This document shows, in pieces, positions 7,418-28,293 of a stretch of 35,570 nt of DNA; position 1 is the stretch's first letter, and each line of letters opens with the position of its first letter. Location: the IMG/VR virus record IMGVR_UViG_3300020045_020219, positions 1 through 35,570 of that record. One strand, written 5' to 3'. The notes beneath the pieces are model-generated. The model was not told the DNA's origin. It ran no database searches and saw only the letters and a program-made list of their open reading frames with translations. The stretch comes from a virus. Taxonomy: Duplodnaviria > Caudoviricetes. A program made the position numbers and the translations under genes.

Positions 7418-8347
7418 TTATCCTGAACACATATTACATAATTTATAACAAGTCATAATGAACCCATTTTTCCCTGCATTGAAGAGAGGATTTTTAAACT
7501 CTTCAAAAATCAATCCTGCCATAAGGTTATCTTCTCTCATAACTGTAGACGCGCATAAACCAATTAAGCCGACCCGAACGCTCTCGTGGTTAGCCAAGTC
7601 CATACTTTGAAGGATAGTCTTAATCTGCACCCATTTTTGCCCCGATAATAGGGCTTTAAAAAGATCAAGAGTGTTTTTTTCAGATGAACGGAAATCTTGG
7701 ACAGAAGCTTCCATTTTATCCAAAGGCATATCTATGATTTGATCAAGAATAACTAATGCCTGTCTTGGACACCCATCAGAAACTTTGGCAATTAATTTTA
7801 TGATATTTTCAGGAATATCATTTACATTTTCTTTTTCAAGAACCCAATTCAATAGTTTGACTATCCCTCTCTCTCCTAACGATTGAACTTCAAATTGAGC
7901 ACATCTATTTCTGATTGTTTTGATAAGCTTTTCAGGGTCAGTTGTGCAAAGGATAAAGTATACATGAGCCGGAGGCTCTTCAAGGGCTTTCAATAAGGCG
8001 TTGGCTGCATCTCCGGTTAGCATATGGCACTCGTCAAGGAGGAATACCCTTGATTTACTCCCAGGAGTTTGAGGTTTATATTTCATATTGTCAATGATAT
8101 TTCTTACTGCATCAATGCCTCTTGTGCTTGAAGCATTGATTTCGACATAATCAGTTCCAAGGCAACCTAATCTATCTTTTACGATCCTGCCTAATGTAGT
8201 CTTACCACAACCACTTGGACCTGAAAAAAGATAAGAATGAGGCCAATCTTTTTCTCTGTCGAAGATAGCTTTTAGTGAACCGACTATAGATTCGTTACCG
8301 ATAATTTCATCTAAATTTTTTGGTCGGTAATCTACCATAAGAGTCAT
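7418..8347 (-). CDS. dnaX: DNA polymerase III gamma/tau-like clamp-loader ATPase
   Basis: YRPKNLDEIIG, GPSGCGKTT, LLDECHML, NALLKALEEPP, TIRNRC, G.PR.A; SD AGGAG before 8347. Confidence 0.92.
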   Translation of the reverse strand: MTLMVDYRPKNLDEIIGNESIVGSLKAIFDREKDWPHSYLFSGPSGCGKTTLGRIVKDRLGCLGTDYVEINASSTRGIDAVRNIIDNMKYKPQTPGSKSRVFLLDECHMLTGDAANALLKALEEPPAHVYFILCTTDPEKLIKTIRNRCAQFEVQSLGERGIVKLLNWVLEKENVNDIPENIIKLIAKVSDGCPRQALVILDQIIDMPLDKMEASVQDFRSSEKNTLDLFKALLSGQKWVQIKTILQSMDLANHESVRVGLIGLCASTVMREDNLMAGLIFEEFKNPLFNAGKNGFIMTCYKLCNMCSG

Positions 8348-8360
8348 GTTAAATCTCCTT

Positions 8361-8540
8361 TTAAAAATACATATCCACAATATTCAGAATTTCATTTGCT
8401 TCTGAGATATTTTGTTTAATTACTTGTTTTTGTAATTCAAGTTGGTCTTCTGAATAAGTCACCTTTGGTTTTAAAATATTATTTGCTTTTTCTTTTATTA
8501 ATTTTAATGTTGAAAAAGGGATTTGTTTATAAGCTTCCAT
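8361..8540 (-). CDS. hypothetical protein (59 aa)
   Basis: Not in the track; AAGGAG SD, MEAYKQIPF..., fills the gap. Confidence 0.65.
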   Translation of the reverse strand: MEAYKQIPFSTLKLIKEKANNILKPKVTYSEDQLELQKQVIKQNISEANEILNIVDMYF

Positions 8541-8811: not shown

Positions 8812-11800
8812 TCAAGAGTTCTTTGTTGAATTATTAAAAGTTTCAGCGAAAAATTTTATCCCATCTCCAAACAATTTAACATTTTCAGCAGACCGATTTC
8901 TTAACACATAAGAAGGATGAACACACCATATAACATTGGCTTTTACCTTTTCGATCCATTCCATTGTCCCTGATGCTTTTGTTATTCCTGCTTGCTTTCC
9001 GCTTAAGGTATAATAAGCAGAACCACCAAGAGCAAGGATCAATTTACAATCCATTGACTTTATTTCTTCAACCATCCATTTATGGAAACAGGTATCAATT
9101 TGTTCATGAGATGGGGTCCTGGAAATTTTAGGAAAACATTTTACCGTATTTCCAACATGAAGCATCCTTCTATTGATTTTATATTTCAATAATTCATCCC
9201 ATAACATTTCGCCAGGGTCACCAACAAAATTTTGACCTTTTTCATCGTCAATTTTCCCTGGATAATCCCCTATAACTAAAACATTATAAGTCCCTTCACT
9301 GGATAAAACAACTTGATATGCTTCTTTTCTTAAATCACATTCGTAGCAATCAAGAACTTTTTTATCTATAACAGCTTTCTTCTTAATAACATCGATTTTT
9401 GATATTGCAATAGAAGAACAACCTGAACCTATATCAAATTGAAAATATTCTTCATAGTTATCGGGTCGAGCTTTTATGTCAGGGTCAAAGGCTTTTATTT
9501 CAGATAATATTTTCTGTGTGCTTGTCTGGTTAACTGCTGTGTTCTGGACATTAAAAAATCCTTTTTTAGGTGCTTTCGGAGGTGACATATTAATACACTT
9601 TAAAGCTTCCTTTTCACCAATCCCTTTGATTTCAATAAAAGGCATGTATAAGTTATTATCTTTAACTATCCATTTATCCGCCTCAGAGATTCCTACTTTA
9701 GGGGTGACAACATACATTCCTTTCTTTTCTGCTTCCTCTATTAATTTACCTTTGTCCCCATCTTCACCATATGTTAAATAGGCACAGGTATATTCGGCAG
9801 GAAAATATAGTTTTGCCCAAGCAGTCCAGTAGCCAATCATAGCGTATTCAATAGAATGCGCCAAATTAAAGCCATACGAAGCCCATTCAAGCAACCCTTC
9901 CCAGAATTCTTCTGCTTGTTTTTGAGTCAAAGTATTTTTATTTCTGCAACCTTCTAAAAATTGAATTCTAAAAGGTTCAAATTCTTTTGGGTCTCTTTTC
10001 TTTCCAATAACCTTTCTTATTTTATCTGCATCAGCTCCTGAAAAACCTGCAAGGTCAGTCATAGCCTTCATCATTTGCTCTTGATAGACCATAACTCCAT
10101 AGGTATCTTTTGTTATTTCATCGTATATTTTATGGATGCTTTGCCATTTTTGTCCTTTCTTTCTTTTGACATATAAATCCGACATTCCGGATTCCTTCGG
10201 CCCTGGCCTTGCAATAGCAATTACTGCTGAAATATCTTCAATATTTTGAACTCCAGCTTCTATGCAAAACTTTGTGCAATCATATCCGGTTAATTGAAAA
10301 ATACCTGCTGTTTGTCCTTTTGAGATATAATTGTAAACTTCTGGATCGTTAAAAGGCAAAACGCTCCATTCAAATTTTTTGTTTGAAATAGGATAGGAAA
10401 GCCCTTCTATATCAGAATCATTTTCTTTTCCAAACCACCAACTACTTGACTCAGGATGAAAATACAAATACTCTCCATAATTTTTGAAAATCAGTCTTTT
10501 ACATTCATTCAAAACAGTTAAAGTACCAAGTTTCAAAACATCTATTTTTATTAAACCAGTATGTTCAGAATCTTCCATGTCCCAGTTAATAACTTTTTTA
10601 TCTTCTCTCAAGGTTAAATGACATCTATTTGTGTTTCTTAAATCGTCTCTTGAAACTATTAATCCAGCAGGATGTTGACCTTTTGCTTTAACCTGCCCTT
10701 CCAAATTACAACAATGTTCGAACTGTTCTGGGTATTTATTAGAAAATAATTTCCCTTCAACTGTTTCTAATGTATGTTTAAGAATTTCATCTTTATGGTC
10801 TCCAACAGTTATCGACTTTGCATATTCATCAATATCTTTTGAAGGTAGTTCGAAGGTACTGCTAACATCCCTTACAATGGCTCTAGCTTGCATTCTAATG
10901 AATGTATTTATTCCAGCTATGTTATAGCTACCATATTCCTTTTCAAGGTGTTCTCGGACAAGATAAGCCTTTTCTTTGTCGAAGTCGATGTCTATATCAG
11001 GGAAATCTATACGTTCGGGATTAATAAATCTTTCAAATAATGTTCCGTACTTCAAAGGATCAACTTCTGTAATGCCTAGCAAATAAGCTATGAGAGAGCC
11101 ACCTACCGATCCGCGACCAGGGCCGATTAGAATATCATTCTTTTTGCACCATTCAACCAATTCATAAATCACAAGAAAGTATCTAGCAAAATTTTTGTCT
11201 TTAATAATTTTGAGCTCATAAGAATATCTGTCCTCATAAGCTTTGTCCCATTTAACTCTTGAAACATGCTCAAAAAGATTGCTTTTACCGAAATGGTCAA
11301 GAATATCCGCAGAGGATTCGTTTCCGCCTTTTTCATATTTGGTTAAAGGAAGTTCGATATTCAATTTGGGAATTTTGAAATCTATCATATCGGAAATTTT
11401 ATTTGTATTACTCATCGCAATAGATATTTGTCTATCAGATAAAATTCCTTGTCTATTGAAAGCAATTCTTAACTCTCTTTCATCTTTCAGATGAAGACCT
11501 TGCACTTCAAATTTCCATCTATTAGGATCATTCCATTTTGCTCTTCTCTGAATTGCTAATAACACCTCTTGGGATTTAGCGTGTTCCATCAAAACATAAT
11601 GGCAGTCATTAGAGGCAACCAATGAAGCTTTTGAATTACCAAAAAGTTCAAGGCATAATTGGTTTGTTTTAATCTGTTGCTCTATTTTATGAGGCATAAC
11701 TTCAAGGAAAATGTTAGAAGAAAAGGCATTCAATAATTCATAGAATACTTCTTTGCCATTAGGCTGCCATAAAAAGGAACTTGTGCAGGCGGTTAAAATA

Positions 11801-12186
11801 ATCAACCCATCATTCATGTTATTCTTTAATGTTTTGAAATCAATTCTCGGTCGATTATAAAAACCTTCTATATTGGCAATTGTGAGCATATCAAGAAGAG
11901 ATTTCCAGCCTTTTTCATTCTTGACTAATATCGTAATATGCCCTCTTTTCTCTCCTTGATTTTTTATAGTTAAATCCGGGACAATATAAAGTTCAGAACC
12001 TATAATTGGTTTGATGTTTTCTTTAATACAAGTTCTTTGAAATTTAAGAGCACCATCTATATTGGCATGGTCGGTGATAGCAATTGCTTCCATTCCAATT
12101 TCTTTTGCTCTTTTAACATATTGTTCAGGAGAGCCCATACCATCAAGAGCGCTGAATTCAGTGTGATTATGAAGTGAAACATACAT
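8812..12186 (-). CDS. dnaE: DNA polymerase III alpha (PHP + Pol core + HhH) fused to a C-terminal family-4 UDG-like domain
   Basis: LHNHTEFS.LDG, AITDH, SNDCHY, GRGSVGGS, PDIDIDF, KIDVL, YQEQ, YGFN.AH, IKGIG; the last roughly 180 aa have C..C.L, GDYPG, FVG..G, NTVKC.P, LG, HPS. Confidence 0.93.
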   Translation of the reverse strand: MYVSLHNHTEFSALDGMGSPEQYVKRAKEIGMEAIAITDHANIDGALKFQRTCIKENIKPIIGSELYIVPDLTIKNQGEKRGHITILVKNEKGWKSLLDMLTIANIEGFYNRPRIDFKTLKNNMNDGLIILTACTSSFLWQPNGKEVFYELLNAFSSNIFLEVMPHKIEQQIKTNQLCLELFGNSKASLVASNDCHYVLMEHAKSQEVLLAIQRRAKWNDPNRWKFEVQGLHLKDERELRIAFNRQGILSDRQISIAMSNTNKISDMIDFKIPKLNIELPLTKYEKGGNESSADILDHFGKSNLFEHVSRVKWDKAYEDRYSYELKIIKDKNFARYFLVIYELVEWCKKNDILIGPGRGSVGGSLIAYLLGITEVDPLKYGTLFERFINPERIDFPDIDIDFDKEKAYLVREHLEKEYGSYNIAGINTFIRMQARAIVRDVSSTFELPSKDIDEYAKSITVGDHKDEILKHTLETVEGKLFSNKYPEQFEHCCNLEGQVKAKGQHPAGLIVSRDDLRNTNRCHLTLREDKKVINWDMEDSEHTGLIKIDVLKLGTLTVLNECKRLIFKNYGEYLYFHPESSSWWFGKENDSDIEGLSYPISNKKFEWSVLPFNDPEVYNYISKGQTAGIFQLTGYDCTKFCIEAGVQNIEDISAVIAIARPGPKESGMSDLYVKRKKGQKWQSIHKIYDEITKDTYGVMVYQEQMMKAMTDLAGFSGADADKIRKVIGKKRDPKEFEPFRIQFLEGCRNKNTLTQKQAEEFWEGLLEWASYGFNLAHSIEYAMIGYWTAWAKLYFPAEYTCAYLTYGEDGDKGKLIEEAEKKGMYVVTPKVGISEADKWIVKDNNLYMPFIEIKGIGEKEALKCINMSPPKAPKKGFFNVQNTAVNQTSTQKILSEIKAFDPDIKARPDNYEEYFQFDIGSGCSSIAISKIDVIKKKAVIDKKVLDCYECDLRKEAYQVVLSSEGTYNVLVIGDYPGKIDDEKGQNFVGDPGEMLWDELLKYKINRRMLHVGNTVKCFPKISRTPSHEQIDTCFHKWMVEEIKSMDCKLILALGGSAYYTLSGKQAGITKASGTMEWIEKVKANVIWCVHPSYVLRNRSAENVKLFGDGIKFFAETFNNSTKNS

Positions 12187-15277: not shown

Positions 15278-16510
15278 TTATCTAGTTGGGTTATTTTTCT
15301 TCATTTCTAAATATTTTCCATAAGCTTCACTTTTCGGCTGTTGAAATCCTAAACCTTTACACCACCAATCGTTCCTAAGTAGAATTTTGCACATTCTTCT
15401 CCAAGAAGGAGCCCAATGTTTATTTTCTAAAACTCTTGGCGCTGCATCAGGGATTTCTTTAATATAGCCTCTTTCTTTCCATCCCTTTATGAAAACTTTA
15501 AATCTTTCAAGATAATGATCTCTTGTAATTTTTGGCATAGTTTTAAGAAGAAGGTTACAAAAACTTTTATATGTATGCCCTTCAGGAAGAGTTATTTTAT
15601 CATTTCCCATTATATTTCCTTTTTCTTGGATATACATTGCTCCAAAATTAGCTCCATTGACTCTTGAAACTAATTTATACCAAGACTCAGGTTCTAAGAT
15701 ATGATAGAGCCATAATCCTTTCTTTTGATCGTCTCCATAAGGTTGACACAACCTTTGATTCGCTATTGGGACCAAAGCTTTATACATCATTTCATATATA
15801 GAATTAAATATTTTATGAGGATTCAAAAAATGATATTTCCAAATATCAGAAACTTTCCAATCATATATCGGATAAATATTATAAAGATCGTCTAAAACTT
15901 TTGTTGTAAACCTTTTATTTTGAAAAGTTTCCTTTTTATAACTTGCTATAGTTCGAAATCTATTCAAGCTTTCATCAGCTCTTATTCCAACAAAACAAGC
16001 TGTTCTTTTATTATTATTTATGCTTTTATACCAATCTCCAAACAAAATTATAAATTCTTCAAATTCCATCCTTCTATTAAAAAAGGGGAAAAATTTTGAA
16101 TCAGAAATTACTCCAGGATATTTTGGCATTTCTCTTACCCAAAATTCTTTTTTATTTTCATCCCAGGGAGTCCAAGATGGTTCAAAGGCGCTAACTGAAT
16201 TTCTTAATGCCAAAGGTAAACAAACCCAATATAAATGAATATATTCTTTATAAAGTTCAAACATTTTTTGAGCATGACCTGATGTCGCTTTATACTGTGC
16301 TTCAAAATCAATTAATAAAATTCCAATTTTTCTTTTTCTTTTAATTGCTTCATCTACAACTAAATGAAACATTGTAGTGCTATCTTTTCCCCCGCTGAAA
16401 CTCAAATAAATAGATTCGAAATTATCAAAAACATACGATATTCTATCTTGCGCTGCTTCTAAAACATTTTTATTAATAAACCTTTTTAATTTATTATCTT
16501 TATAATCCAT
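15278..16510 (-). CDS. PAPS-reductase-like/DUF3440 protein (YbdN/IbrA family)
   Basis: SFSGGKDS PP-loop, GIRADESLNR, PIYDW...DIW, QRLCQPYG, RVNGANFG, PSWRR.C..LLRND. Confidence 0.9.
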   Translation of the reverse strand: MDYKDNKLKRFINKNVLEAAQDRISYVFDNFESIYLSFSGGKDSTTMFHLVVDEAIKRKRKIGILLIDFEAQYKATSGHAQKMFELYKEYIHLYWVCLPLALRNSVSAFEPSWTPWDENKKEFWVREMPKYPGVISDSKFFPFFNRRMEFEEFIILFGDWYKSINNNKRTACFVGIRADESLNRFRTIASYKKETFQNKRFTTKVLDDLYNIYPIYDWKVSDIWKYHFLNPHKIFNSIYEMMYKALVPIANQRLCQPYGDDQKKGLWLYHILEPESWYKLVSRVNGANFGAMYIQEKGNIMGNDKITLPEGHTYKSFCNLLLKTMPKITRDHYLERFKVFIKGWKERGYIKEIPDAAPRVLENKHWAPSWRRMCKILLRNDWWCKGLGFQQPKSEAYGKYLEMKKNNPTR

Positions 16511-16511
16511 T

Positions 16512-16934
16512 TTAATATAAATTTGGCTCCGTTTTAGATTGTGCTTCGTTCATAGTCAAAGGTCTTTCTCCATGTTTTTCTAACCAGATATTTAAATATT
16601 TTAACGCACTTTCATTTGCTTTGTTTTGTTGTTCTTCTGATAATCTATGGAATCCTACTCTAAAACAAGAGGGAATATGAAATCGATAAGCTAAGGCAGC
16701 TTGCCCTAGCCAAGCTATCCGATTCATTCTTTCATTAGTTAAATAATGTTCACAAGAATATTTCCATTCAGTAATAACCTTATTTAAAACTTCTTCAAAA
16801 AAATCAATATTTGTTAATAGATTAATATAACAAGAAACAGCTTCTTCCTTGGTCATTCCTTCTGGAGGATTGTCTTCATAAAACCCTGCTGGATAACATT
16901 CCCATTTTTCCCAAGTATGAAATATTCTATTCAC
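16512..16934 (-). CDS. conserved hypothetical protein between IbrB- and IbrA-like genes
   Basis: WEKWEC...GFY, W..SCEH.LTN..MNRIAWLGQAA. Confidence 0.75.
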   Translation of the reverse strand: MNRIFHTWEKWECYPAGFYEDNPPEGMTKEEAVSCYINLLTNIDFFEEVLNKVITEWKYSCEHYLTNERMNRIAWLGQAALAYRFHIPSCFRVGFHRLSEEQQNKANESALKYLNIWLEKHGERPLTMNEAQSKTEPNLY

Positions 16935-17727
16935 TTTCAGAGTCCTCTAAAACATTTCCATAAATTTCTTCATCATCAAATATTTCCGACTCCCAAGCTT
17001 GAGAAAAATCTACATTTCCAAACATTTCCAGTAACCCATTTATCTGGCATAACCTTAAAACTTCATCTGGTTCCATTCCCAATTCTTTACCGATTCTGTC
17101 GTTAGTCCAATTTCTTTTCCTTAATTCGATAACTATATCTTTCATTCCATCAACAGTATGCTTTCCTCTTGCTCTATTATGTCTTATTGTAGAGGCTATA
17201 CGATCGTTTTTATTTTCTCTTTCTGCATTGATAATAGATAAAGGAAGATATCCAAAAATTCTTTCTTTTATATTTGAGCATTCTTTACCTACTCTATTTC
17301 TATGAAAGCCGTCTACAACTTCAAAATTTTCTTCTTTACTCCAAGCAACTATAGGTTGAGTATATCCATCGCAATCTATAGAATGTTCAAGTAGTTTCAT
17401 TTCTGGAGGGGCGACTACATTGGGATTATAATCATTTGCTTTAATATTTTCTGATCTAACCCAAACAACACAATCAACAGGTTCATTCTTAAAAGGAGAA
17501 TTTGAATGCAACAGTTGTTTTATTCTATTTATTGTTTCTATCTTATCTTCAAGAGATAATGATTCTAATTCTTTAAAAAGTATTTCTGATTTTTGACAAA
17601 TTTCATTATCAATTTTTCCAATGCCTCCAAATCTATTCCGGTCTAATAAAGAAATAGATTTGGAGGGTTTTTCTATTTGCTCTTTTTCTTTTACTTGAAT
17701 TTTAAAGAATCCTGGTCTATCTTTCAT
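16927..17727 (-). CDS. ParB/Srx-like protein (YbdM/IbrB family)
   Basis: PVDCVVWV, ANDYNPN.VAPPEM.LL, DGYTQPIV, VVDGFHR, STIRHNRARG.H, I.KELGM..DEVLRL.Q. Confidence 0.9.
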   Translation of the reverse strand: MKDRPGFFKIQVKEKEQIEKPSKSISLLDRNRFGGIGKIDNEICQKSEILFKELESLSLEDKIETINRIKQLLHSNSPFKNEPVDCVVWVRSENIKANDYNPNVVAPPEMKLLEHSIDCDGYTQPIVAWSKEENFEVVDGFHRNRVGKECSNIKERIFGYLPLSIINAERENKNDRIASTIRHNRARGKHTVDGMKDIVIELRKRNWTNDRIGKELGMEPDEVLRLCQINGLLEMFGNVDFSQAWESEIFDDEEIYGNVLEDSESE

Positions 17728-17936: not shown

Positions 17937-18941
17937 TTACTCATTGATCAAACACACGGAATGCCTAAAATCATTACCTGCAAATAGGAGTATATTTTCT
18001 CCTATTATTACATCTGTTGAAAATTCAAGTATCTGAATCATATGTTCAGGGCTGACATCAAACTTCAATTCGTCTCCATCATAATCAGGAGCCGAAACGG
18101 GTTCTTTAAACCAGGCACCTTTGCCTTCTGAAAAGACATTGATAAATTTCTTTGCTATTTTTACTGTTACTTTGTCTTCATCTTTTGAAAGAATTGATTG
18201 GGCTCGGTTTAAAGCTCCCGATAAAGCCTTTGGAAGCTGTATCTTTCTCCCTTCAACATTTAGAAACTCTTCCAGAGAAGGATAATCATCAACGATAACC
18301 CGATGAGTAAAAACAACTCCATTTTCATCTTTGTAATGGGCACAGGATTCAGTCAAGGCATATTCAATAATTTTGAAGGCAGAAAGAAATGAAGCTATCT
18401 TTCTTGAAATCAAAAGTTTATTGTCTAATAGGCCTGTCATTTCTGATTTCAAGATTTTTTCTGAAATACGATAATTGTCAGAAGAAATAATTCGATCTTT
18501 TGCTACATATAAATTACACATAGAGCCATAAGACGAATCGTTCGCAGCGCTGAAAATACAAAATTTTAAGGCATCAATAAAGCCTTCTGGAAATTTATTC
18601 CATTCTTTTACCTGAGCAAGGCCAAGATCGGGAATTGTCTTTGGATCATAAGAAATCAGTGAGAATCCGGCTTTTCCTTCCGCCCCAACTATCAATTGGT
18701 CTTCTTCGAGAGAAAGAGAGATTTCGTCAACAGCAGATTTCTCAATGAGCTTTGTAAATTTCTCTTCTTGAATGGCCGCTATAAAATCGGTTTTCAACGG
18801 AACGGAGATAGAAATATTGTCTCCATAGCTTATAAGCTTTTCTCCGTCAAAGATTATAAGCCCTTTGAACTCAATAAGTTTTCCATCCGATATTGCTGGC
18901 TTTACTTTTTTAATTGCTTCCAATAATACTTGTTTCTTCAT
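17937..18941 (-). CDS. dnaN: DNA polymerase III beta-like sliding clamp
   Basis: 334 aa, three-domain pattern, LL.AI.KV, SSDNYRI (ATDG.RL-like), DYP linker, final F.H.V..I. Confidence 0.8.
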   Translation of the reverse strand: MKKQVLLEAIKKVKPAISDGKLIEFKGLIIFDGEKLISYGDNISISVPLKTDFIAAIQEEKFTKLIEKSAVDEISLSLEEDQLIVGAEGKAGFSLISYDPKTIPDLGLAQVKEWNKFPEGFIDALKFCIFSAANDSSYGSMCNLYVAKDRIISSDNYRISEKILKSEMTGLLDNKLLISRKIASFLSAFKIIEYALTESCAHYKDENGVVFTHRVIVDDYPSLEEFLNVEGRKIQLPKALSGALNRAQSILSKDEDKVTVKIAKKFINVFSEGKGAWFKEPVSAPDYDGDELKFDVSPEHMIQILEFSTDVIIGENILLFAGNDFRHSVCLINE

Positions 18942-18998: not shown

Positions 18999-19721
18999 TT
19001 ATTGCGAACTTAATACCTTTCTTACTTTGATAGGATTCAATCTATCTTTAAATATTTTCAAACTTTCTCTTCCTAAAACTCCCCCATCATTAACAAGTTT
19101 GTTTGCATTTATATAATATAAATATCTTAAATATTCTGGCAAAAAAGGAATATTTTTACATATACAATATCGATAATTAAGATACTTAAAATTTTCATCC
19201 CAAATATTTATTCCATAAATATCTTTAGATGATTCTCCGATTAGATAACTTTGACTTTTCCCTTCAAAAACATAATCAACTAATACATTTGCGTCTTCTA
19301 TATTTTCAAAATTATCAACCCATTCAGATAATAATTTTTCTTTTTTATTTTTTGAAAGATCATTACCAGAAAGATATGATAAATCTTCTTTAATTCTTTC
19401 CGGAAATTTTTTAGAATTCTTTCGGAAAGTCATCCACTTTTTTCCAACCATATTTAAAAAACTTTTGGGATCATAGATATATTCATAATCCAAAAAGTTT
19501 TTACCGGAGAATTCAGGAAAATCGCTCCAAAACTTTCCTCCAATAAATTCTCCTTTTAAAGAAATTTTTGGGAAAATCAATTGGGCATCTCCATAGATTG
19601 AAACAATATCGTTTTGAAGATCTATGATAAAATTACTTTTTTCAAAATATTCAACAGAACACCACCAATTCGGAGTTATGTTATATTTCTCTAGCAAATT
19701 TATATATTCAAAACTATTCAT
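18999..19721 (-). CDS. DUF2156/LPG-synthase C-terminal-like GNAT-fold transferase
   Basis: EYIY....F..M.GKKW..FRKN.KKF and VNDGG.LG.ESL..FK..LNP resemble the DYIY...L.GKK....RN and INRE.DLG..GL...K...P motifs of the family. Confidence 0.6.
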   Translation of the reverse strand: MNSFEYINLLEKYNITPNWWCSVEYFEKSNFIIDLQNDIVSIYGDAQLIFPKISLKGEFIGGKFWSDFPEFSGKNFLDYEYIYDPKSFLNMVGKKWMTFRKNSKKFPERIKEDLSYLSGNDLSKNKKEKLLSEWVDNFENIEDANVLVDYVFEGKSQSYLIGESSKDIYGINIWDENFKYLNYRYCICKNIPFLPEYLRYLYYINANKLVNDGGVLGRESLKIFKDRLNPIKVRKVLSSQ

Positions 19722-19869
19722 TATTCTTTAAAAAACCCTTTCCTTTTGGGAATGATTTTTGAGGGTTGACCACATTTTCTTTCTGGTTGTTCTTTTGGCT
19801 CTTCTCTGAGATTAATCTCTTGACTAAGTCCTTCGTTATTCGTCCTCCCTTCCTGCTCTTGCCTCCCAT
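19714..19869 (-). CDS. overprinted small basic protein (51 aa, MGGKSRKGGRITKDLVKRLI...KGKGFLKNNE)
   Basis: Not in the track; AGGAGG SD 6 nt before ATG; alternative frame inside the tail of 19721-20614. Confidence 0.6.
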   Translation of the reverse strand: MGGKSRKGGRITKDLVKRLISEKSQKNNQKENVVNPQKSFPKGKGFLKNNE

Positions 19870-20614
19870 CGTTTTCCTCCTGACTTATAATTTCTATGTC
19901 GCCAATTTCATCATAAAAGCAACAGGCCATAATCCCGACAACTTTAACGGGCGGAGTCCCTGGCCCTAATCCCATTTCTCCTTCTAACAAGAAATATTGA
20001 TTGCTTTCATTAAAATAAAAATGGACTTTATTATAATATATAAAAATAGACAAAAAATCATCAGTCCTTATTCCTATTGGGCCAAAATTTTTTGTTAAAT
20101 TCGGTTGAAGTCCTCTCATCCCTTCATTTTTTTGAATAATTTCATGTTTTCCCCCGCTGAAAATATCTCTTTGAATCATATAAAAAGTCTTATTTTTAAA
20201 GGATAATTCAATATGGGACAATTCATCTTTTAAAGAAGAAGAGATTGAATTTGAGAAAAAAATACTATCCTCACTATAATGGGTAAAGAATTTCTTAAAA
20301 AGATTATCTATTTCCTCAAATCCTCGACTTGCTTTACAACAAGTCTTTTTGATTGTATGATCTTTTTTTTCAATAGTAAAAACAGCCTGACCATTTTCTT
20401 CTTTGAAATTTTCGCTTATAAACTCAGTTGCGTTGAAACTTACTTCTTGGGCAAATTGAGGCTCGTTTTCTGGAAGAAAAAACCTCAACAATAAGGTGTT
20501 ATCTTTATTCAAAAGATAAATAACCCTTCCTTTGCAATAAATTTCATTTCTTAATCTTCCCGTATCTGAAAGTTTTTTAGCTCTTTCAAAAATTGTTTTA
20601 GTCATTTGGTTCAT
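19721..20614 (-). CDS. hypothetical beta-rich protein with low-complexity tail
   Basis: 297 aa, ATGA overlap with the radical SAM gene; ends KRKGFFKE. Confidence 0.75.
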   Translation of the reverse strand: MNQMTKTIFERAKKLSDTGRLRNEIYCKGRVIYLLNKDNTLLLRFFLPENEPQFAQEVSFNATEFISENFKEENGQAVFTIEKKDHTIKKTCCKASRGFEEIDNLFKKFFTHYSEDSIFFSNSISSSLKDELSHIELSFKNKTFYMIQRDIFSGGKHEIIQKNEGMRGLQPNLTKNFGPIGIRTDDFLSIFIYYNKVHFYFNESNQYFLLEGEMGLGPGTPPVKVVGIMACCFYDEIGDIEIISQEENDGRQEQEGRTNNEGLSQEINLREEPKEQPERKCGQPSKIIPKRKGFFKE

Positions 20615-22011
20615 AAGCATCCCTCCAAAATATTCATTCTAAAATCGTCATTTTTAAGATATTGCCATTCTACATTACCTTGAGTCCCTGATGGAAGAAT
20701 TCCTTGGCCATACCCCATAGAATAGGCCTCAAGTCCTCCATTTTCCATCTGCCAAAGTTGATGAACTTCTTCTTTTAATTTGTCAGAAAGAAATCCTCCG
20801 TTATTATTCACAAAATTTTCAAATTCTTTCCAATTGACTAATTTTCCCTGCTGCCGTTGGATATATCTTATTGCTCCAACCGTCGACCCATAATTAAATT
20901 TAGAATCAGAAAACCAATCTCCAACCTGGCAACATATATCATCATCGTTATAAGGGACATTACCAAGGTCAAAGGTTGAACATTTAAAGCCTTTTTCTTT
21001 GAACATCTCCATAAACTTATTTAATAACAAGGAGCCAATAGCTTGACTTTCGCTTGTTAAAAGAAACATTCTGTTATAGTCATATCCTTGTCGAATATAA
21101 TTTTCCTTTATCCCAGCATTATTGACTGAAAAACTATAGGTATCAAAGGTCATATGTCTTACTCCTGCTTCATAAACTTCGTCTATATATTTTTTTACTG
21201 CATCAGGATGGTCATTGATAAAGGCCATATATGGTTCAATTCTAGCAACAACTCTTATCCCTGCTGCTGACATTTTTCTCATAGCTTCAAGACGTCTGGA
21301 ATAGCTTGGAGCGCCTGGTTCTAATTTTTTTAATAAATTTTCATCAGATGATATTAAAGTCACATGAACCGCTGCCTTTGCTGGATTGTCTGTTAAGGCT
21401 TTTAAATAAGCCTCATCAGCAACCAAATCTGATTTTGTGTTTATCATTACTGGATAATTTGAAGATGCAAGAAATTTTAATAATTCAAGGGAGACTCCTC
21501 TTTTCTTTTCTACAAGATGAAAATCTTCAAAACGGATACCGATGCGAATGGGCATTTTATTGTTAATAGCTCTTTGAATTTCTGAAGAGGTAGGTTTGCC
21601 AATGTTATCAAAGTATTTTGATAATTCAGGTTTAAAAAATTCAGGATTGCATGATCTCAATTTAACGGCTTTTCCATTATCAAAGAAATTAGGATAAAGC
21701 TTTCCTCTAAAATAATCGGCAAAGCAATAACGGCATTTAAATGGGCATAGAATTCCGTCCCAAACATCAATATTTAAACACATTGGGCAAGCTTGGGCAC
21801 GTAGAGAAACTTCAATAAAATTACTAAATTCTTCTGTGTTTAATAACCTTTCGTTTTTTACCCATTCCCCGGAAGAAAGATTGAATTGATGATAATTTGT
21901 TTTTCTTCCTTTTTCTTTTATCGCAGATTGAAGTTTTTGATTAGTCCCTATCAAAACTTTTTGTCTTGGAATAAGCTTTGCCACTTCTTTTCTTAACTCA
22001 TAATAATTCAT
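20611..22011 (-). CDS. radical SAM enzyme, SPL-like (rSAM-1)
   Basis: CPFKCRYC (CxxxCxxC), INTKS, LEPGAPS..RRL, ARIEP, C-terminal CC. Confidence 0.88.
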   Translation of the reverse strand: MNYYELRKEVAKLIPRQKVLIGTNQKLQSAIKEKGRKTNYHQFNLSSGEWVKNERLLNTEEFSNFIEVSLRAQACPMCLNIDVWDGILCPFKCRYCFADYFRGKLYPNFFDNGKAVKLRSCNPEFFKPELSKYFDNIGKPTSSEIQRAINNKMPIRIGIRFEDFHLVEKKRGVSLELLKFLASSNYPVMINTKSDLVADEAYLKALTDNPAKAAVHVTLISSDENLLKKLEPGAPSYSRRLEAMRKMSAAGIRVVARIEPYMAFINDHPDAVKKYIDEVYEAGVRHMTFDTYSFSVNNAGIKENYIRQGYDYNRMFLLTSESQAIGSLLLNKFMEMFKEKGFKCSTFDLGNVPYNDDDICCQVGDWFSDSKFNYGSTVGAIRYIQRQQGKLVNWKEFENFVNNNGGFLSDKLKEEVHQLWQMENGGLEAYSMGYGQGILPSGTQGNVEWQYLKNDDFRMNILEGCL

Positions 22012-22837
22012 TTGGTGCACTCCCAATATTCCAGAACAAGACTTTTTTATCCTGAAAGATTTGTATATTTTCTGTTAACCATTGCCATGCCTTAAGATCA
22101 TAATAAGGATGAGAAGGGAAAGGACAGAATGCTTTTGAAGGCTTAGTATATTCCCATTTAGAATCTATCAAAAATAAATTTTGGCCTCTATACCCCCACC
22201 TTTGAGTTTTTTCTATTATTCTTTTCTTTTTTAACTCTGCATTTCGTGTCCAACCAAGAATTCCATATACTTCTTTTTTAAGATCAATTCCATTTAAAAT
22301 ACCTGAAGTTATTGTGCCGCTACCGACATTAATAACAACACAATCGAAATCTATTTCCTTTTGAACTTTTTGAATAATTTTAGAAGTTTCTATTGTAGTC
22401 TCTTTTAATTGTAAACCCAAAGGCAACATAATAGAATTTTCATAATTTTGATTTAAGATTTTTTTGGATAAATAAAAATTGACTTTAGTTCTTCCTGCCT
22501 TTAACTGTATTATATCTGCTCCAAATTTATTCCATTGCTCTTTATGAAATCTTAAATATTTTAAATCCTCTCTTTCTGAGACATAAACAGGTTCAAAGAT
22601 AACCGCTTTTAAACCTATTTCTTTACAAGCCCAGGAGACTCCCCACCCTGCCATGCTAATTGAGGTTTCAGTATATCCCACTGTTTTAAACCCTTGATCT
22701 GCTAAAGATAACAAATAAGGAAATAAACCTCTTACTTTGGAAAAAGTCGGCCCTGGAAAAGGACAAGCAAAATCTTCTCTTTTAACCAAAACTTCCTTAT
22801 CATTAATCAAATATTTTTCTATCGGCGTTTCATTCAA
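21998..22837 (-). CDS. fold-type-II PLP enzyme (ACC deaminase/D-cysteine desulfhydrase-like)
   Basis: TPIE, VKRED, SKVRG (Schiff-base Lys), VGSGT...G, PYYD.KAW, LFWNIG. Confidence 0.85.
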   Translation of the reverse strand: MNETPIEKYLINDKEVLVKREDFACPFPGPTFSKVRGLFPYLLSLADQGFKTVGYTETSISMAGWGVSWACKEIGLKAVIFEPVYVSEREDLKYLRFHKEQWNKFGADIIQLKAGRTKVNFYLSKKILNQNYENSIMLPLGLQLKETTIETSKIIQKVQKEIDFDCVVINVGSGTITSGILNGIDLKKEVYGILGWTRNAELKKKRIIEKTQRWGYRGQNLFLIDSKWEYTKPSKAFCPFPSHPYYDLKAWQWLTENIQIFQDKKVLFWNIGSAPNELL

Positions 22838-23583
22838 AATAGAAAACCTCCATCTTTGTGAATTATAGAAATAGGTTCTATATCAGGGGTAAAGTATTCA
22901 ATAAATTCTCCTTTCTTTTCTGATTTTTTTAAAAATAGCAAAGCACAAGCATTAGTTTTAAAAAAATAAACCCCTTTTATGTCAAAACCAAATAATCTCC
23001 AAAAAATGTCTTGACATAATTCATAGTATTGTTCCCATGTTGCTAATCTATATCCCTTTAAATTCTTTTCCCCAAATTTTTTACCAAAACAAAAAGAATC
23101 CGCAATTATCATACATTTAGAGCATTCAAAAAATTTTAATAATACTTTATACCAAAAGTAAATTTGATTTAAAGTAAAATTATTGAAATCAAGCATTGTT
23201 AAATCGAAAGTTTCTTTACAATTAAAATCAAAAACATCTAAATTATAAATTTTTTCTTTGTGTTCAGGGAAATTTTTTATTAAAATATCATAACATCCCT
23301 TATCCAAATCGTTTAAATACATTATTTGAGGGTTTAAATATTTTTTGGCGATAGAAGCAGTTAAACCAGTTCCTCCAAAACAGTCCAAATAAGTTCGAAT
23401 CCTTTCTTCAAGAAAATCTTTTCTTTTCATAATCGCTTTGAAGGCTCCTATTTCACTTTCAATATCTTTTTTATGTTTACTTATAAAATTTTTTTGAGCA
23501 GAAAGTTTTTCTATTTTACCTTCATTAAAATCACAATTTTTACCAAGATCAACAATAATATTAGAATCAAAAATTATTTTCAT
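22834..23583 (-). CDS. Rossmann-fold SAM-dependent transferase, atypical
   Basis: YLDCFGGTG motif I, LNDLD, NLDVF, DLTMLDFNNF at the motif IV position. Confidence 0.65.
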   Translation of the reverse strand: MKIIFDSNIIVDLGKNCDFNEGKIEKLSAQKNFISKHKKDIESEIGAFKAIMKRKDFLEERIRTYLDCFGGTGLTASIAKKYLNPQIMYLNDLDKGCYDILIKNFPEHKEKIYNLDVFDFNCKETFDLTMLDFNNFTLNQIYFWYKVLLKFFECSKCMIIADSFCFGKKFGEKNLKGYRLATWEQYYELCQDIFWRLFGFDIKGVYFFKTNACALLFLKKSEKKGEFIEYFTPDIEPISIIHKDGGFLF

Positions 23584-24656
23584 ATTAAAAATCCCCTTTT
23601 CTTCTTTGGTAAAGAAATTTCTGGGATATCTTTCATTGTATAAAATCCTTTAGAATCTCCGGTTAAAATTTTTCTTCCTTCTTCAAAATCTCCAATTCCG
23701 TCCCAAGTAGAAGATAATATTTCTTCGACTTCCATTTTAGGGTTTTGTTGAAGAATTCTTTTCCATGTATGAGTATTGAACGTCATAGGATTAGAAACAT
23801 CAACTCCACAACAAGTATTTGCTTTTTGAAAATATGATCCTGTATTAACAAAATCAGGGCACCCAAGAATAATATCATATTTTTTTGCTAAATCAATTAA
23901 TTTTTGTTGAATAGGTTTCCAATTTTCATCTTGATTTCCCTCCCAAATCGCCATTATATCAAGTCCAATATCCAATAACCTTTTGGCAACAAAATCATTA
24001 AAATGAAAATTATAAATATTATATCGATTAATTCCTTCTGATTTCAGCCTTTTCAACATATCCTCAAATTGTTCAACAGTATGCCAACCGGGGATAAAAG
24101 GCTCTCCATTAACAGCTACCTGCATACCCTCTCTTTTTAAAAGAGCTATATGAGTAAATCTATGGCTTATGGGTGTTGTTCTTTGTCTTTCGAGAACTTC
24201 CCAATCCTTTTCCACCCCACAACTAATAATAGGCTGAACTATTCCAAAATTTTTACAGGAAACAATATCATCAAAATAATCCATCATTATTTCTGTAACC
24301 ATTGTTTGAATAACAAAAGGCCATTCTAATTTTTTCAAAATTTTAATACATTGTTGAGAAATTCTATATTCTCTTTCTGATTTTTGAAATGGATCTGTTT
24401 TGTTCCCGAACCTCAAAACTTTCTTTTTCTTAATTGCATGAGCTAATGAAGTCTTTGGAGAAGAATTTTTTAAACCATTAACGAGTTTAGATTCTAACTC
24501 ATTTGGATCAATAGGATTTAAACCATTATTCCAAATATGGTTAAGTCTTCTCAAATAACAATGCCAGCAATCATTAAGGCAATCTCCATATGAATCAAGA
24601 GAAAAACAGAGGGGACAATATAAACTGTCCCCTCTTATGGAAAGCCCATGAGACAT
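23580..24656 (-). CDS. radical SAM enzyme, SPL-like (rSAM-2)
   Basis: CPL..SLDSYG.CLNDCWHCY, RFG.KTDPFQ..E, LE..T....R, EPFIP, TCCG. Confidence 0.88.
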   Translation of the reverse strand: MSHGLSIRGDSLYCPLCFSLDSYGDCLNDCWHCYLRRLNHIWNNGLNPIDPNELESKLVNGLKNSSPKTSLAHAIKKKKVLRFGNKTDPFQKSEREYRISQQCIKILKKLEWPFVIQTMVTEIMMDYFDDIVSCKNFGIVQPIISCGVEKDWEVLERQRTTPISHRFTHIALLKREGMQVAVNGEPFIPGWHTVEQFEDMLKRLKSEGINRYNIYNFHFNDFVAKRLLDIGLDIMAIWEGNQDENWKPIQQKLIDLAKKYDIILGCPDFVNTGSYFQKANTCCGVDVSNPMTFNTHTWKRILQQNPKMEVEEILSSTWDGIGDFEEGRKILTGDSKGFYTMKDIPEISLPKKKRGFLI

Positions 24657-24657
24657 T

Positions 24658-25239
24658 TTATTTGGCTACTTTAAAGCCAGAATTTTTAATTTCTTCAAAA
24701 ACTTTTGAAACGATATTGAAGGCCCATTTTGTTTCATTCGGATTTGAAGTTCCTCCTGCGGAGGCATATTCTTTATCGATAAGAGAAAGAATTGATTCTT
24801 TGGTTTCTTCTTTGCCAAGAAGAAAAAGAAAAACGTCTGTTGTGATTTCAATACGACCCTTCCCGACTTTGAGCTTATTCGGAGGATTCTTGGAAATCTT
24901 CTTTTCTGAAGTTTCCTTTTTCTTTTCCGGGGATTCTTCTTTTATTATTGGAGGGAAAACTTCCTTCAATCTTTTTGCTGTATCAGGCGAAATTGCTCTT
25001 ATCGCTTCAACTGTTTCTTTCTGAAGCAAAGGAATATCTCCTGATTGAAGAAGTTCATACTTGCCTTCTCCATTCTTGAATTCGCATATTCCTTTTACCT
25101 CTGAGATTATTGCTCCAGTAAAATCATCTTCATTGGTAAAATCTGCTTCTGAAAAGGTGCTACCTATTGCTGGTTCAAGTTGAAGAATTTTGTTTAAATC
25201 TGCCATAGTTGCTATTAAAATTGCTTTTGTTAAATCCAT
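24658..25239 (-). CDS. hypothetical protein, first gene after promoter motif copy 4
   Basis: 193 aa, AGGAG SD, Lys/Glu-rich linker. Confidence 0.75.
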   Translation of the reverse strand: MDLTKAILIATMADLNKILQLEPAIGSTFSEADFTNEDDFTGAIISEVKGICEFKNGEGKYELLQSGDIPLLQKETVEAIRAISPDTAKRLKEVFPPIIKEESPEKKKETSEKKISKNPPNKLKVGKGRIEITTDVFLFLLGKEETKESILSLIDKEYASAGGTSNPNETKWAFNIVSKVFEEIKNSGFKVAK

Positions 25240-25270: not shown

Positions 25271-25311
25271 TATTTTATTATATAAAAAATTACTTTTTAT
25301 ATAATAAAATA
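25271..25311. promoter_or_regulatory. 18-bp perfect palindrome made of two back-to-back promoter motifs
   Basis: TATTTTATTATATAAAAA-attac-TTTTTATATAATAAAATA; motif on minus at 25276-25288 and on plus at 25294-25306. Confidence 0.75.
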
Positions 25312-25952: not shown

Positions 25953-27502
25953 TTTCCTCTCCTCACAAAACATGAATCAATGTATGGCCTTCCAATAGCC
26001 AATTGCTGCAAAACAGCAACCTCCGCAAATATACTTTGCTCATGTCTCATTTTATCAATCTCCACATAAATCAATCCTTTTTCTAAATCTTCTTTTTTCT
26101 GATTTAAAGCAATGCCCAAATCAATTCCACGTCTTTTCTCTATTGAACCGGCCCAGCTTCCTTTGCCTACTTTTTTCCCAGTTCTTTCCGTATTACTCTG
26201 AGATGCAGTAATTGATAAACAATGTTTTTCTTGCGCCAATGCTTTATGAGCATCCCATATTTGGTTTAAGCTTCCATACAAGTCGTTAGGATTATACAAC
26301 TTAAATTTATCAGCATAATCCGTTATGAAAAAATCAACAATAAAATCATCATAAAATTCCAGATTATTAACATATGCAATCATCTTGTCAACGGTCAAGG
26401 TATTTGTCGGAAATTCTACCAAATGAAATTTTCCTGCTTTTGTTAAAGTCCCAGACCTTTTCAATTGTTCATATTTATGTACCGCAATAGCCGGATCAAG
26501 AATATTCCTTTCTTCTTTTTTCCACCATGAAGTTAATTTTGAATCATCCCAATTATCTCTGCAAGCAGAACACGGAATATACCCTCTTGGAGTTTCCTCC
26601 GGTTTGGGTAATTTGCCATTTTTATCAACCAAACAAATATTGCAAGATCGTTTTGATAAAGTGCAGGAATTAGTTTGGTTATAGAGACAGTCAAAAGAAG
26701 GGATTAAAACGTCAGGATTCAATGTAGGCGATGCCGTTAAGTCCTGCCATATCCTTCTACCCATTTTCCTTTCTTGCATCTCTAGGGACATAAAGATGCC
26801 GTTAAACCCCCTAAAGACTCCTATCTTTGAAAGGAACCATAGCCACCAGGTTTTGCCTACACCGGATTCAGCTTGGAAAGCCATTGAATATCCTCTTTCC
26901 AAAGGCCCACAGGCTTGTCCTAATGCTCCCGGCAATGTCATTAAAATATCAGGATTCTCTTCATTGGTTTTTGTTGATTCCGAAATGAATTGGATATCTC
27001 TTAAAGGGTCGACCCCTTTGGATTTTATTCTTTCAGGTCTTTGATACTTTTTTATTAGAGCCTCTCCTTCATCAATTCTACCTCCTGTTATTGCTTTGCC
27101 GAGTTCTTGATGGATATGTTTTAAGTTCGTTAGTCTGAAATATTCTTCAGCAATATCTAAAAAATAATCTGTATTGAAATTTTCCGATCTTTCAAAATCG
27201 TCTGAAAGGCCTGTTAAGAAATCTTCAATTAAATTTGCTCTTTCTTCATCTAAGGTAGATTTGTTTCTCAAAAAGATTTCTTCAATATTTTTTTGAGGAG
27301 CTTGATTGTAACTGTCATAGTAATCTAAGCACCAGTCTGCAACTGTTTTGGTAAAATCCGTTTGAAATTTACCGTTCAGAAGTAAAGGCTTCACCTCTCT
27401 TAAAAATCTGTCAGAAATAATCATCCCAGTGATAATTTTTCTTTCCTGGGAGGCGTTAACCGGATTTTTTCGTTCGCGTATTAGTTCGTTGAGTTCAGGC
27501 AT
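25949..27502 (-). CDS. dnaB: DnaB-like (SF4) replicative helicase with Cys-rich insertion
   Basis: ESGVGKT, SLEM, ITDYAD, LAQE...ITASQ, K.R. Confidence 0.85.
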   Translation of the reverse strand: MPELNELIRERKNPVNASQERKIITGMIISDRFLREVKPLLLNGKFQTDFTKTVADWCLDYYDSYNQAPQKNIEEIFLRNKSTLDEERANLIEDFLTGLSDDFERSENFNTDYFLDIAEEYFRLTNLKHIHQELGKAITGGRIDEGEALIKKYQRPERIKSKGVDPLRDIQFISESTKTNEENPDILMTLPGALGQACGPLERGYSMAFQAESGVGKTWWLWFLSKIGVFRGFNGIFMSLEMQERKMGRRIWQDLTASPTLNPDVLIPSFDCLYNQTNSCTLSKRSCNICLVDKNGKLPKPEETPRGYIPCSACRDNWDDSKLTSWWKKEERNILDPAIAVHKYEQLKRSGTLTKAGKFHLVEFPTNTLTVDKMIAYVNNLEFYDDFIVDFFITDYADKFKLYNPNDLYGSLNQIWDAHKALAQEKHCLSITASQSNTERTGKKVGKGSWAGSIEKRRGIDLGIALNQKKEDLEKGLIYVEIDKMRHEQSIFAEVAVLQQLAIGRPYIDSCFVRRGK

Positions 27503-28293
27503 TTATTCTTTTCAAAATGAATATCGACACATTTATTTAAACGATCAATTATATCTGCTCTGTCATAATGAATTTGTTTATTTGGATTTCTCCCTAATTT
27601 ATCCCATCTGCAAAGTGCCACTAAATCAGGCAGCCAAGGATGATTTAGTAATTCTTGAACTTTGGAAGGTTTTCTCATATCCCCTAAAATCAGATACCAA
27701 AATCTCATATGATGTTCAATTAACCATAATGATTTTGCACTTAAATAATCTTGCATCATTTTAACAGATTCTTTTTTATGAGTATGTTCTATTTCAGGAA
27801 GTTCATCCCAAAATTCTTGGAGCTTTGTTTCCGGTTCTTTTGAATCTAAAATATCAAGAATTTCTCTTACAGTATTTAACCTGCTTCCTCTTATTCCATA
27901 ACGGGCAGCTTGTCTTCTTGCATACCCGATAAAAGCTGCTAAATTTTTTGTATAGAATTTATCTCTATTTCTTTGAATCGCTTTCCAGATAAGGCTTGAA
28001 TGTTCAATCATCTCTTCTGGAGCATGAAGCATATCCATAGCAACAGTTTGACCTTCACATGCCAGTTGAATGAAATAATGCAAAGAAAATATTTCAGTAT
28101 CCACATCATCTTTTGTATTCTTGCCTGATTTGTCTTTTGTTGAATAGTTATACACTTTTGGTATTTGGTTCAAAAGAACCTGCCTTTCTGTTGGCAGGAA
28201 TATCCCTTTATAATCTAAGTCAGAATTTTCTGAATCAGTTCCATATAAATGAGAACCAAATTTCATTTTGACGATTAAATTTAACTCATCCAT
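27481..28293 (-). CDS. RlaP/Nuc-transf-like nucleotidyltransferase with an apparent HD-like C-terminal fragment
   Basis: FGSHLYGT....SDLDYKGIFLP, F.GYA..QA.RYG.RGSRL; the tail LWLIEHHMR...L...DK.GR resembles the second half of an HD domain. Confidence 0.75.
   Translation of the reverse strand: MDELNLIVKMKFGSHLYGTDSENSDLDYKGIFLPTERQVLLNQIPKVYNYSTKDKSGKNTKDDVDTEIFSLHYFIQLACEGQTVAMDMLHAPEEMIEHSSLIWKAIQRNRDKFYTKNLAAFIGYARRQAARYGIRGSRLNTVREILDILDSKEPETKLQEFWDELPEIEHTHKKESVKMMQDYLSAKSLWLIEHHMRFWYLILGDMRKPSKVQELLNHPWLPDLVALCRWDKLGRNPNKQIHYDRADIIDRLNKCVDIHFEKNKCLNSTN

Follow-up and report, generated by a model that had tools for sequence, protein, structure and literature searches.

A phage gene module with two radical SAM enzymes and a candidate new route to thymine hypermodification

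Published pathways of thymidine hypermodification start, in the part of the account cited here, from 5-hydroxymethyluracil (5-hmU) and a DNA kinase (PMC8989533). According to the same part, the pathway of phage M6 to 5-(2-aminoethyl)-2′-deoxyuridine (5-NedU) relies on a 5-hmU kinase (gp54), an amino acid:DNA transferase (gp51), a radical S-adenosylmethionine (SAM) isomerase (gp53) and a pyridoxal phosphate (PLP) decarboxylase (gp52); PLP decarboxylation requires a free amine and a carboxylate, and gp52 decarboxylates C-alpha-glycinylthymine but not N-alpha-glycinylthymine, the latter being oxidised by gp47 of phage PaMx11 (PMC8989533). Mom, in the portion of its description used here, is a precedent for the transfer of glycine from Gly-tRNA to DNA by a GNAT enzyme (PMC13219725). 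Here, we analyse a gene module with tailoring enzymes related to these, carried by one phage contig of 35,570 bases (IMG/VR record IMGVR_UViG_3300020045_020219; Duplodnaviria, Caudoviricetes; ~39% complete)—hereafter the window—and by its uncultured relatives.

The module has a five-gene core—two radical SAM enzymes (rSAM-A and rSAM-B), a PCNA-fold clamp, a short overprinted peptide and a DUF2156-like transferase—while the PLP enzyme and SAM-dependent transferase of the window belong to a swappable cassette. We put at roughly 0.6 the probability that this core makes a glycine–thymine adduct on replicating DNA without phosphorylation of 5-hmU, and that tailoring then yields 5-aminoethyluracil, likely N-methylated in the window phage.

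A fixed core and a swappable cassette

An earlier reading of the bare sequence (the original prediction) proposed a hypermodification pathway encoded by eight genes between a C5 methyltransferase and helicase and a clamp gene. The genes are there: eight minus-strand open reading frames (ORFs), abutting or overlapping their neighbours (gaps of +1, −4, −4, −14, −10, −149 and −8 nt), are flanked by a C5 methyltransferase and a DnaB-like helicase on one side and by the clamp gene on the other (Table 1).

An alignment of rSAM-B retrieved 166 loci, 96 of them non-redundant (the window included), in all of which rSAM-B is present by construction, as it served as bait. The usual order is DnaB, H6, rSAM-A, cassette, rSAM-B, PCNA, peptide, transferase, clamp and polymerase, with cassette genes occasionally upstream of rSAM-A. 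The clustering suspected at the outset is conserved: rSAM-A (or a longer variant), the transferase, the PCNA-fold gene and the peptide occur together in 52/52 loci with DnaB or H6 at one end and the clamp at the other (spanning loci). Thirty of these have the PLP enzyme, and 14 have the SAM enzyme. Among the cassette genes of all 96 loci, PLP enzymes (49), SAM enzymes (18), aldo-keto reductases (14) and DUF362 proteins (8) are the most frequent; rarer members are a second GNAT-like gene (6, all with the PLP gene), GT2-like genes (4), a flavin adenine dinucleotide (FAD) oxidase (4, each time together with the reductase) and a methyltransferase that we take to be CmoA-like (2). Among the 62 loci in which it is fully seen, the cassette is empty in 11. 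Quick trees built for the same 50 loci showed one change each for the DUF362 and the reductase-plus-SAM cassettes on the rSAM-A tree, versus four to six on the rSAM-B, transferase and PCNA trees, so rSAM-A travels with the tailoring genes while the other four core genes form a fixed unit; linkage alone could contribute to this pattern, yet rSAM-B also borders the cassette.

Two core members had escaped the original prediction. The second of its ‘hypothetical’ proteins is, on its structural model, a second PCNA-fold clamp alongside the replicative one, with Foldseek matches to PCNA (E 5e-9) and to viral PCNA and clamp proteins at TM-scores of ~0.5–0.6 and 8–14% identity. The overprinted ORF is a real gene, because it has an AGGAGG ribosome site, keeps the motif GGKSRK in 67/67 loci that hold both flanking genes (despite a search pattern permitting variants) and varies its codons synonymously across those 67 loci. 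Its product, a candidate amino-acid carrier or adaptor, is absent from sister loci without the module.

The DUF2156-like assignment of the transferase stands: its model matches 2hqy (Foldseek E 2e-8) and then MprF, aaPGS and FemX, a profile search also matches 2hqy, and one homologue exceeds the Pfam LPG_synthase_C cut-off. It thus has the tandem GNAT fold of the DUF2156/MprF-C/FemX class and is predicted from this model to use aminoacyl-tRNA as donor. The membrane flippase domain of MprF is absent from the 240-aa protein, and homologues at E ≤ 1e-8 include no longer forms, a weak negative; Mom is not named among the Foldseek matches listed, which involved no direct comparison with Mom. The family comprises 273 clusters (at 50%) at E ≤ 1e-30.

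Both radical SAM enzymes show the features of the superfamily, namely the CxxxCxxC motif and the core domain (the latter in rSAM-A via its profile match to rSAM-B, probability 98.9); they are paralogues, each with a C-terminal CC. The original label of spore photoproduct lyase (SPL)-like enzymes was a loose one, with rSAM-B reaching 12.9 bits against the Pfam SPL cut-off of 27 and rSAM-A having no Pfam match at all. NCBIfam PA0069-family matches below cut-off put the module's radical SAM sequences in the vicinity of SplB. PDB profile searches with the two enzymes found nothing relevant. Relatives of rSAM-B, the likely entry enzyme, form 544 clusters (at 90%), the best 120 sharing at least 50% identity. 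Its gene is long or split in loci L065, L067, L068, L069, L070, L074 and L078, and database homologues carry intein domains; inteins commonly sit in conserved, essential phage genes. A third radical-SAM-related ORF of ~510 aa lies between transferase and clamp in loci L055 (12175-13737) and L146 (11754-13268).

Probable action on DNA, likely target base and entry step

Three independent lines of evidence—a shared genomic slot, a clamp-fold gene in the core and the distribution of a short terminal tail—make it highly probable that the module acts on DNA bases. Sister phages were found via an alignment of a uracil-DNA glycosylase (UDG)-exonuclease (best 80 of 561) and yielded 27 non-redundant loci that extend from DnaB to the clamp; given this sampling, and module loci that are longer and mostly beyond the span of the set, the slot counts are not frequencies. 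One of the 27 has the module. Among the other 26, 20 carry QueD, QueE, FolE and a tRNA-guanine transglycosylase (TGT)/DpdA-like gene in the same slot, four have DNA methyltransferase genes (accompanied in one locus by a TET-associated glycosyltransferase and in another by an orphan PLP gene), one carries another radical SAM gene and one a single small, unassigned ORF. Several genes beside the TGT-like gene—an extra radical SAM, a glycosyltransferase-like gene and others—were also seen in the Dpd clusters of sister loci L217, L218, L227, L233, L237, L257, L263 and L268, and possibly lead to further 7-deazaguanine derivatives.

The tail, G[FL][FL], which by comparison with known clamp motifs is inferred to bind the clamp, is present at the N-terminus of the UDG-exonuclease in 44/50 cases and at the C-termini of the SAM enzyme (6/16), rSAM-A (9/63) and the rSAM-A variant (3/8), against a background of 11–12 in 601 ends. 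The peptide carries it in strict form in 13 of 67 loci; four window proteins terminate in it (rSAM-A, the SAM enzyme, the PCNA-fold protein and the peptide). In the sister loci, it occurs on the DpdA-like enzyme (6/20) and at none of the C-termini of the precursor enzymes QueD, QueE and FolE (0/20 each), QueC (0/16) and QueF (0/6). A ‘relaxed’ form of the pattern was dropped, as it had been widened after seeing the data. The replicative clamp is the likely docking platform for the module.

As for the base, three families of tailoring enzyme point to a glycine–thymine adduct in duplex DNA. The PLP enzyme is homologous to gp52 over its full length, and its invariant K34 aligns with gp52 K36, the proposed PLP lysine; its 66 matching phage records include 52 from Pseudomonas phages, M6 among them. 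rSAM-A aligns with gp53 at 25% identity over 204 aa (pairwise E 1e-9) and, judged by this similarity, is likely a gp53-like isomerase performing a tailoring step. The FAD enzyme of four sister cassettes matches PaMx11 gp47 and its kin (20 phage records), with gp47 residues K48, P179, Y180, Q182, R242 and K268 kept in 4/4 enzymes and R210 in 3/4. In the gp47–DNA structure, as far as the cited part describes it, the thymine is flipped, with Q182 reading its O2/N3 and R242 modelled on the carboxyl; mutation of Q182 had only a modest effect on binding (PMC11472151). We therefore lean towards thymine bearing an amino-acid adduct.

The fold of the SAM enzyme (methyltransferase look-alikes at TM 0.59–0.64; weak PDB methyltransferase matches) cannot tell transfer of a methyl from that of another group, and the second GNAT-like gene is weakly assigned (Pfam E 0.03–0.06; hhalign probability 8 to the core transferase), with no PDB match. 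In 43 of the 49 loci with a PLP gene there is no SAM enzyme, so the PLP substrate does not come from it, contrary to the proposed order of SAM enzyme before PLP enzyme and aminoacylation last. The transferase is present in every spanning locus, including those without a PLP gene, and hence more likely acts before an amine is exposed. Given the need for a free amine and a carboxylate, it follows too that the core must supply the amino acid–base adduct.

The tailoring families (gp52, gp53 and gp47) are thus present in module loci, but the entry enzymes of the 5-hmU route are not. The thymidylate synthase/hydroxymethylase family (PF00303) was found in 1/32 records and in 0/8 records at least 90% complete. 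In 21 records, there was no match to any of the three profiles ADDT, HMUDK_hel and HMUDK_HMUD1, which cover the 5-hmU DNA kinase (PF18748; other kinase Pfams not being searched) and the amino acid:DNA transferase (PF18724 and PF18723; aGPT-Pplase3 not being searched), the M6 controls being positive for all three. Searches (tblastn) with M6 gp51, gp54, gp55 and gp58 gave no match at E 0.01, whether in ten whole records, in the loci or in the window. Because three features that define entry are lacking, the module is akin to the M6 and PaMx11 tailoring pathways without being a member of the 5-hmU-derived class, which is what the original prediction had anticipated. Entry would proceed by an undescribed route and amount to new chemistry.

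A proposed route and its alternatives

The core holds a single amino-acid-handling fold (the transferase), a single C–H-activating fold (rSAM-B) and a substrate-like peptide, which together lead us to favour one route, tentative as its details are. The DUF2156-like enzyme would move glycine from Gly-tRNA onto the GGKSRK peptide, as a Ser ester or as a Lys or N-terminal amide. Kept at the replication fork through clamp-docking tails and the PCNA-fold protein, rSAM-B would abstract a hydrogen from the 5-methyl group of thymine; its second Fe-S cluster would oxidise the radical, the glycine amine would trap it and hydrolysis would free N-alpha-glycinylthymine. rSAM-A would then shift the attachment from N to C, as gp53 does, the PLP enzyme would decarboxylate the product to 5-(2-aminoethyl)-deoxyuridine and, in the window phage, the SAM enzyme would likely N-methylate the amine. 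A possible, still speculative, consequence is that a clamp-tethered ribosomal peptide is a reusable carrier charged from aminoacyl-tRNA, with a radical SAM enzyme coupling the amino acid directly to an unactivated thymine methyl of duplex DNA on a dedicated second sliding clamp.

Nearly equal in standing, and likewise doubtful in itself, is a version that shares the thymine reading and the end products but competes with the peptide-charging and coupling steps: rSAM-B would hydroxylate thymine to 5-hmU without oxygen, the DUF2156-like enzyme would O-glycylate it on DNA, the ester would rearrange to N-alpha-glycinylthymine and the peptide would be a clamp adaptor. MprF-fold enzymes form esters with hydroxyls, and the transferase has that fold; TET-associated glycosyltransferase homologues occur in 4/96 module loci; and the transferase and rSAM-B are tailless while the peptide is often tailed. 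Mom, too, in the cited portion of its description, transfers from tRNA to DNA with an on-base rearrangement (PMC13219725). Six consecutive invariant residues in every one of the 67 peptides, however, fit a substrate better than a docking linker. We also know of no precedent for hydroxylation of a DNA methyl group by a radical SAM enzyme, which counts against this version.

It is rather unlikely that the radical SAM and SAM enzymes build an amine on 5-methylcytosine or another base, which the DUF2156-like enzyme aminoacylates last. The slot, clamp and tail evidence does indicate DNA without naming a base, and a C5 methyltransferase adjoins the cluster in the window. Its homologues, however, are found in only 4/96 loci, which tells against the suggestion of 5-methylcytosine as target; PLP genes mostly do without the SAM enzyme; the second GNAT-like gene, seen only with the PLP gene (6/6), is a better fit for a last step; and the gp47 homologues retain the thymine-reading Gln. 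One phage, L129 (235-918, 8363-9334), combines the module with QueE and a DpdA-like gene, which argues weakly against guanine.

Less likely again is that the peptide is the end substrate, its GGKSRK being altered, as in a ribosomally synthesised and post-translationally modified peptide or in protein modification, to give a clamp-bound regulator or host inhibitor. An invariant short core peptide beside radical SAMs that have additional conserved cysteines and a tRNA-dependent transferase fold would suit this, but the nearest characterised relatives of three of the enzymes act on DNA thymine adducts, with DNA-contact residues kept, no protease or exporter family was found in scans of the window, and the slot is shared with DNA-modification genes. 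Least likely of all is a soluble pathway (modified dNTP, cofactor, lipid or tRNA modification) or SPL-type repair, for although the MprF fold acts on lipids, PLP, aldo-keto reductase and DUF362 are common metabolic folds and PHROG labels a weak rSAM-A match ‘photolyase’, the transferase has no membrane domain or fused form, the SPL score is far under cut-off, the soluble-precursor enzymes of sister phages are without the tail that module enzymes have and repair has no need of a variable tailoring cassette.

Several points weigh against a glycine–thymine adduct made without 5-hmU phosphorylation. Glycine, though probably the amino acid, is named by analogy. The thymine-pocket evidence comes from four sister enzymes, none in the window, in which gp47 W51 and K202 are lost. 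rSAM-A is a distant homologue of gp53, and rSAM-B shows hardly any similarity to it. rSAM-A is retained in the FAD loci though the PaMx11 route needs none, which would make sense only if the oxidase acted after isomerisation, leaving a keto acid for the reductase. The peptide has one or two additional N-terminal residues in 5/67 loci, which weakens the N-terminal-glycine version. At one sister locus, L272 (2512-3369), the slot contains methyltransferase genes and, from the module, a gp52-like PLP gene but none of the core, the PLP gene being either a remnant or a partner of another system.

The case for absent entry enzymes has gaps of its own. With the window 39% complete, it rests on relatives; three other kinase/aGPT Pfam families lay outside the search; and Tet_JBP was found in 0/21 records in a search without positive control. 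Those 21 records excluded the module loci with TET-associated glycosyltransferase homologues (L003, L043, L062 and L164).

The tail has an inferred role, was spotted by eye before it was counted in related rows, and is at background in rSAM-B (2/85), the transferase (0/68) and the PLP enzyme (0/42), as it is at PCNA C-termini. Finally, CTAG and GATC are near 0 in module genomes G011 and G012; many restriction-type palindromes, T-containing ones included, are still avoided, so any protection is not blanket, and the modification is probably partial. Palindrome avoidance gave no clear pointer to the target base. Module and Dpd loci both avoid 4-mers: CGCG (0.41 vs 0.76) and TGCA were lower in module loci, and GGCC and CTAG in Dpd loci, in a comparison of 49 module with 18 Dpd loci that were related and subjected to 16 tests.

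Should the thymine reading hold, hundreds of uncultured phages (544 rSAM-B and 273 transferase clusters) modify ordinary thymine by new radical chemistry, and the swappable cassette yields several undescribed bases; should the carrier route hold as well, it would be an oxygen-free C–H amination of canonical DNA from which at least five different end products derive. The published metagenome survey, in the part cited here, recovered contigs by kinase homology (PMC8989533) and would thus have missed this family. An enzyme set that functionalises unmodified thymine in duplex DNA would double as a labelling and sequencing tool, and a five-gene core with two tailoring genes is compact enough for heterologous expression. 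Among cultured phages, the transferase had no match, rSAM-A one weak match and rSAM-B three partial matches, so no isolate for testing was found. We found no description of the module in literature outside subscription papers and supplementary gene-neighbourhood tables.

Genomic setting and comparison with known systems

Table 1. Features of the module and its borders in the window (all coordinates refer to the 35,570-base contig)
Feature	Position	Strand	Remarks
Replicative clamp gene	17937..18941	−	Processivity factor (PHROG 947, E 2e-24); preceded by the transferase in almost every locus
DUF2156-like transferase, 240 aa	18999..19721	−	Soluble; model pLDDT 97
Overprinted peptide, 51 aa	19714..19869	−	AGGAGG ribosome site; GGKSRK, predicted amphipathic stretch, Lys-rich linker, GFL tail
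Second sliding-clamp protein (on its model), 299 aa	19721..20620	−	Two-domain PCNA fold (~238 ordered residues); model pLDDT 84
rSAM-B, 466 aa from ATG	20611..22011 (alternative start 22026)	−	Pfam Radical_SAM above cut-off; CxxxCxxC (C89/C93/C96), invariant C75, C121, C360, C361 (alignment)
PLP enzyme, 279 aa	21998..22837	−	M6 gp52 homologue, 33% identity over full length, pairwise E 4e-56
Class I SAM-dependent transferase, 249 aa	22834..23583	−	Optional cassette gene; C-terminal GFLF tail
rSAM-A, 358 aa	23580..24656	−	CxxxCxxC (C26/C30/C33), invariant C14, C282, C283; C-terminal GFL tail
H6, 193 aa	24658..25239	−	Heads the slot; no family match; homologues in module loci and 7-deazaguanine sister phages
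TATAAT −10-like box	25277..25282	−	Upstream of operon, seen in sequence

The window carries a replication arm with a DnaB-like helicase, the clamp, DnaE with a UDG domain, a clamp loader (7418-8380), SSB and UvsX. Of the single promoter motif proposed earlier, the TATAAT box is present, and it recurs upstream of the homologous first gene in 30/42 loci versus 7.6 in shuffles; this −10 box was the only promoter element seen, a sigma-70 scan having no site there among the matches listed. That first gene, H6, had been counted as a member of the pathway but is not module-specific, because its homologues also occur in phages with other cassettes; family scans and a fold search gave it no family match and no identifiable fold.

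Downstream of the clamp (15278-17727, minus strand) lie a PAPS-reductase/DUF3440 gene, a 140-aa ORF and a ParB-N gene, the first and last presumably an IbrA/IbrB-like pair. The ParB protein begins with a GFF motif. This second candidate DNA-modification unit has no counterpart among the other 95 loci. The polymerase gene (8812-12186, minus strand) encodes a DnaE-type enzyme with a C-terminal UDG domain and an internal GFF motif; relatives have a UDG-exonuclease and PolA instead of this enzyme. A 602-nt inverted repeat (412-1013 and 1882-2483; 93% complementary), with an 85-nt pair inside it, gives rise, one on each strand, to two PDDEXK resolvase ORFs that are nearly identical, and is either an invertible segment or an assembly artefact. 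At 27481-28293 (minus strand), an RlaP-like nucleotidyltransferase has a C-terminal part resembling a short HD-type segment, possibly through fusion or frameshift.

Among known systems, spore photoproduct lyase performs radical SAM chemistry at thymine in DNA; the module enzymes, unlike it, score below the Pfam SPL cut-off and are paired paralogues in a biosynthetic-looking cluster. Phage Dpd clusters share the DnaB-to-clamp slot in the sister phages analysed here, but their enzymes are unrelated and, in the cited part of their description, exchange the base at guanine from a soluble precursor (bioRxiv 10.1101/2023.04.13.536721). Phage Mu Mom, a Gly-tRNA-dependent GNAT that works alone on adenine N6 according to the portion used here (PMC13219725), resembles the transferase as a GNAT-superfamily enzyme in DNA modification, the latter's use of aminoacyl-tRNA being predicted; the module enzyme differs in its tandem DUF2156/MprF-C/FemX fold and four obligate partners. 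As in the PaMx11 pathway to 5-acetylaminomethyl-2′-deoxyuridine (5-AcNmdU), again from the cited parts (PMC8989533, PMC11472151), four sister loci use a gp47 homologue with a largely kept thymine pocket, so that the PLP-versus-FAD exchange between cassettes mirrors M6 versus PaMx11; unlike in PaMx11, the homologue is not in the window, has an aldo-keto reductase rather than an acetyltransferase as partner and leaves rSAM-A in place. Like the 5-NedU pathway of M6, the module pairs a full-length gp52 homologue with a distant gp53 homologue, side by side, and has extra conserved cysteines consistent with a second Fe-S cluster like the one that the cited part reports for gp53 (PMC8989533). Unlike M6, its near-complete relatives are without homologues of gp51, gp54, gp55 and the hydroxymethylase, and the module brings instead a second radical SAM enzyme, a PCNA-fold protein, an invariant peptide and a tRNA-type transferase.

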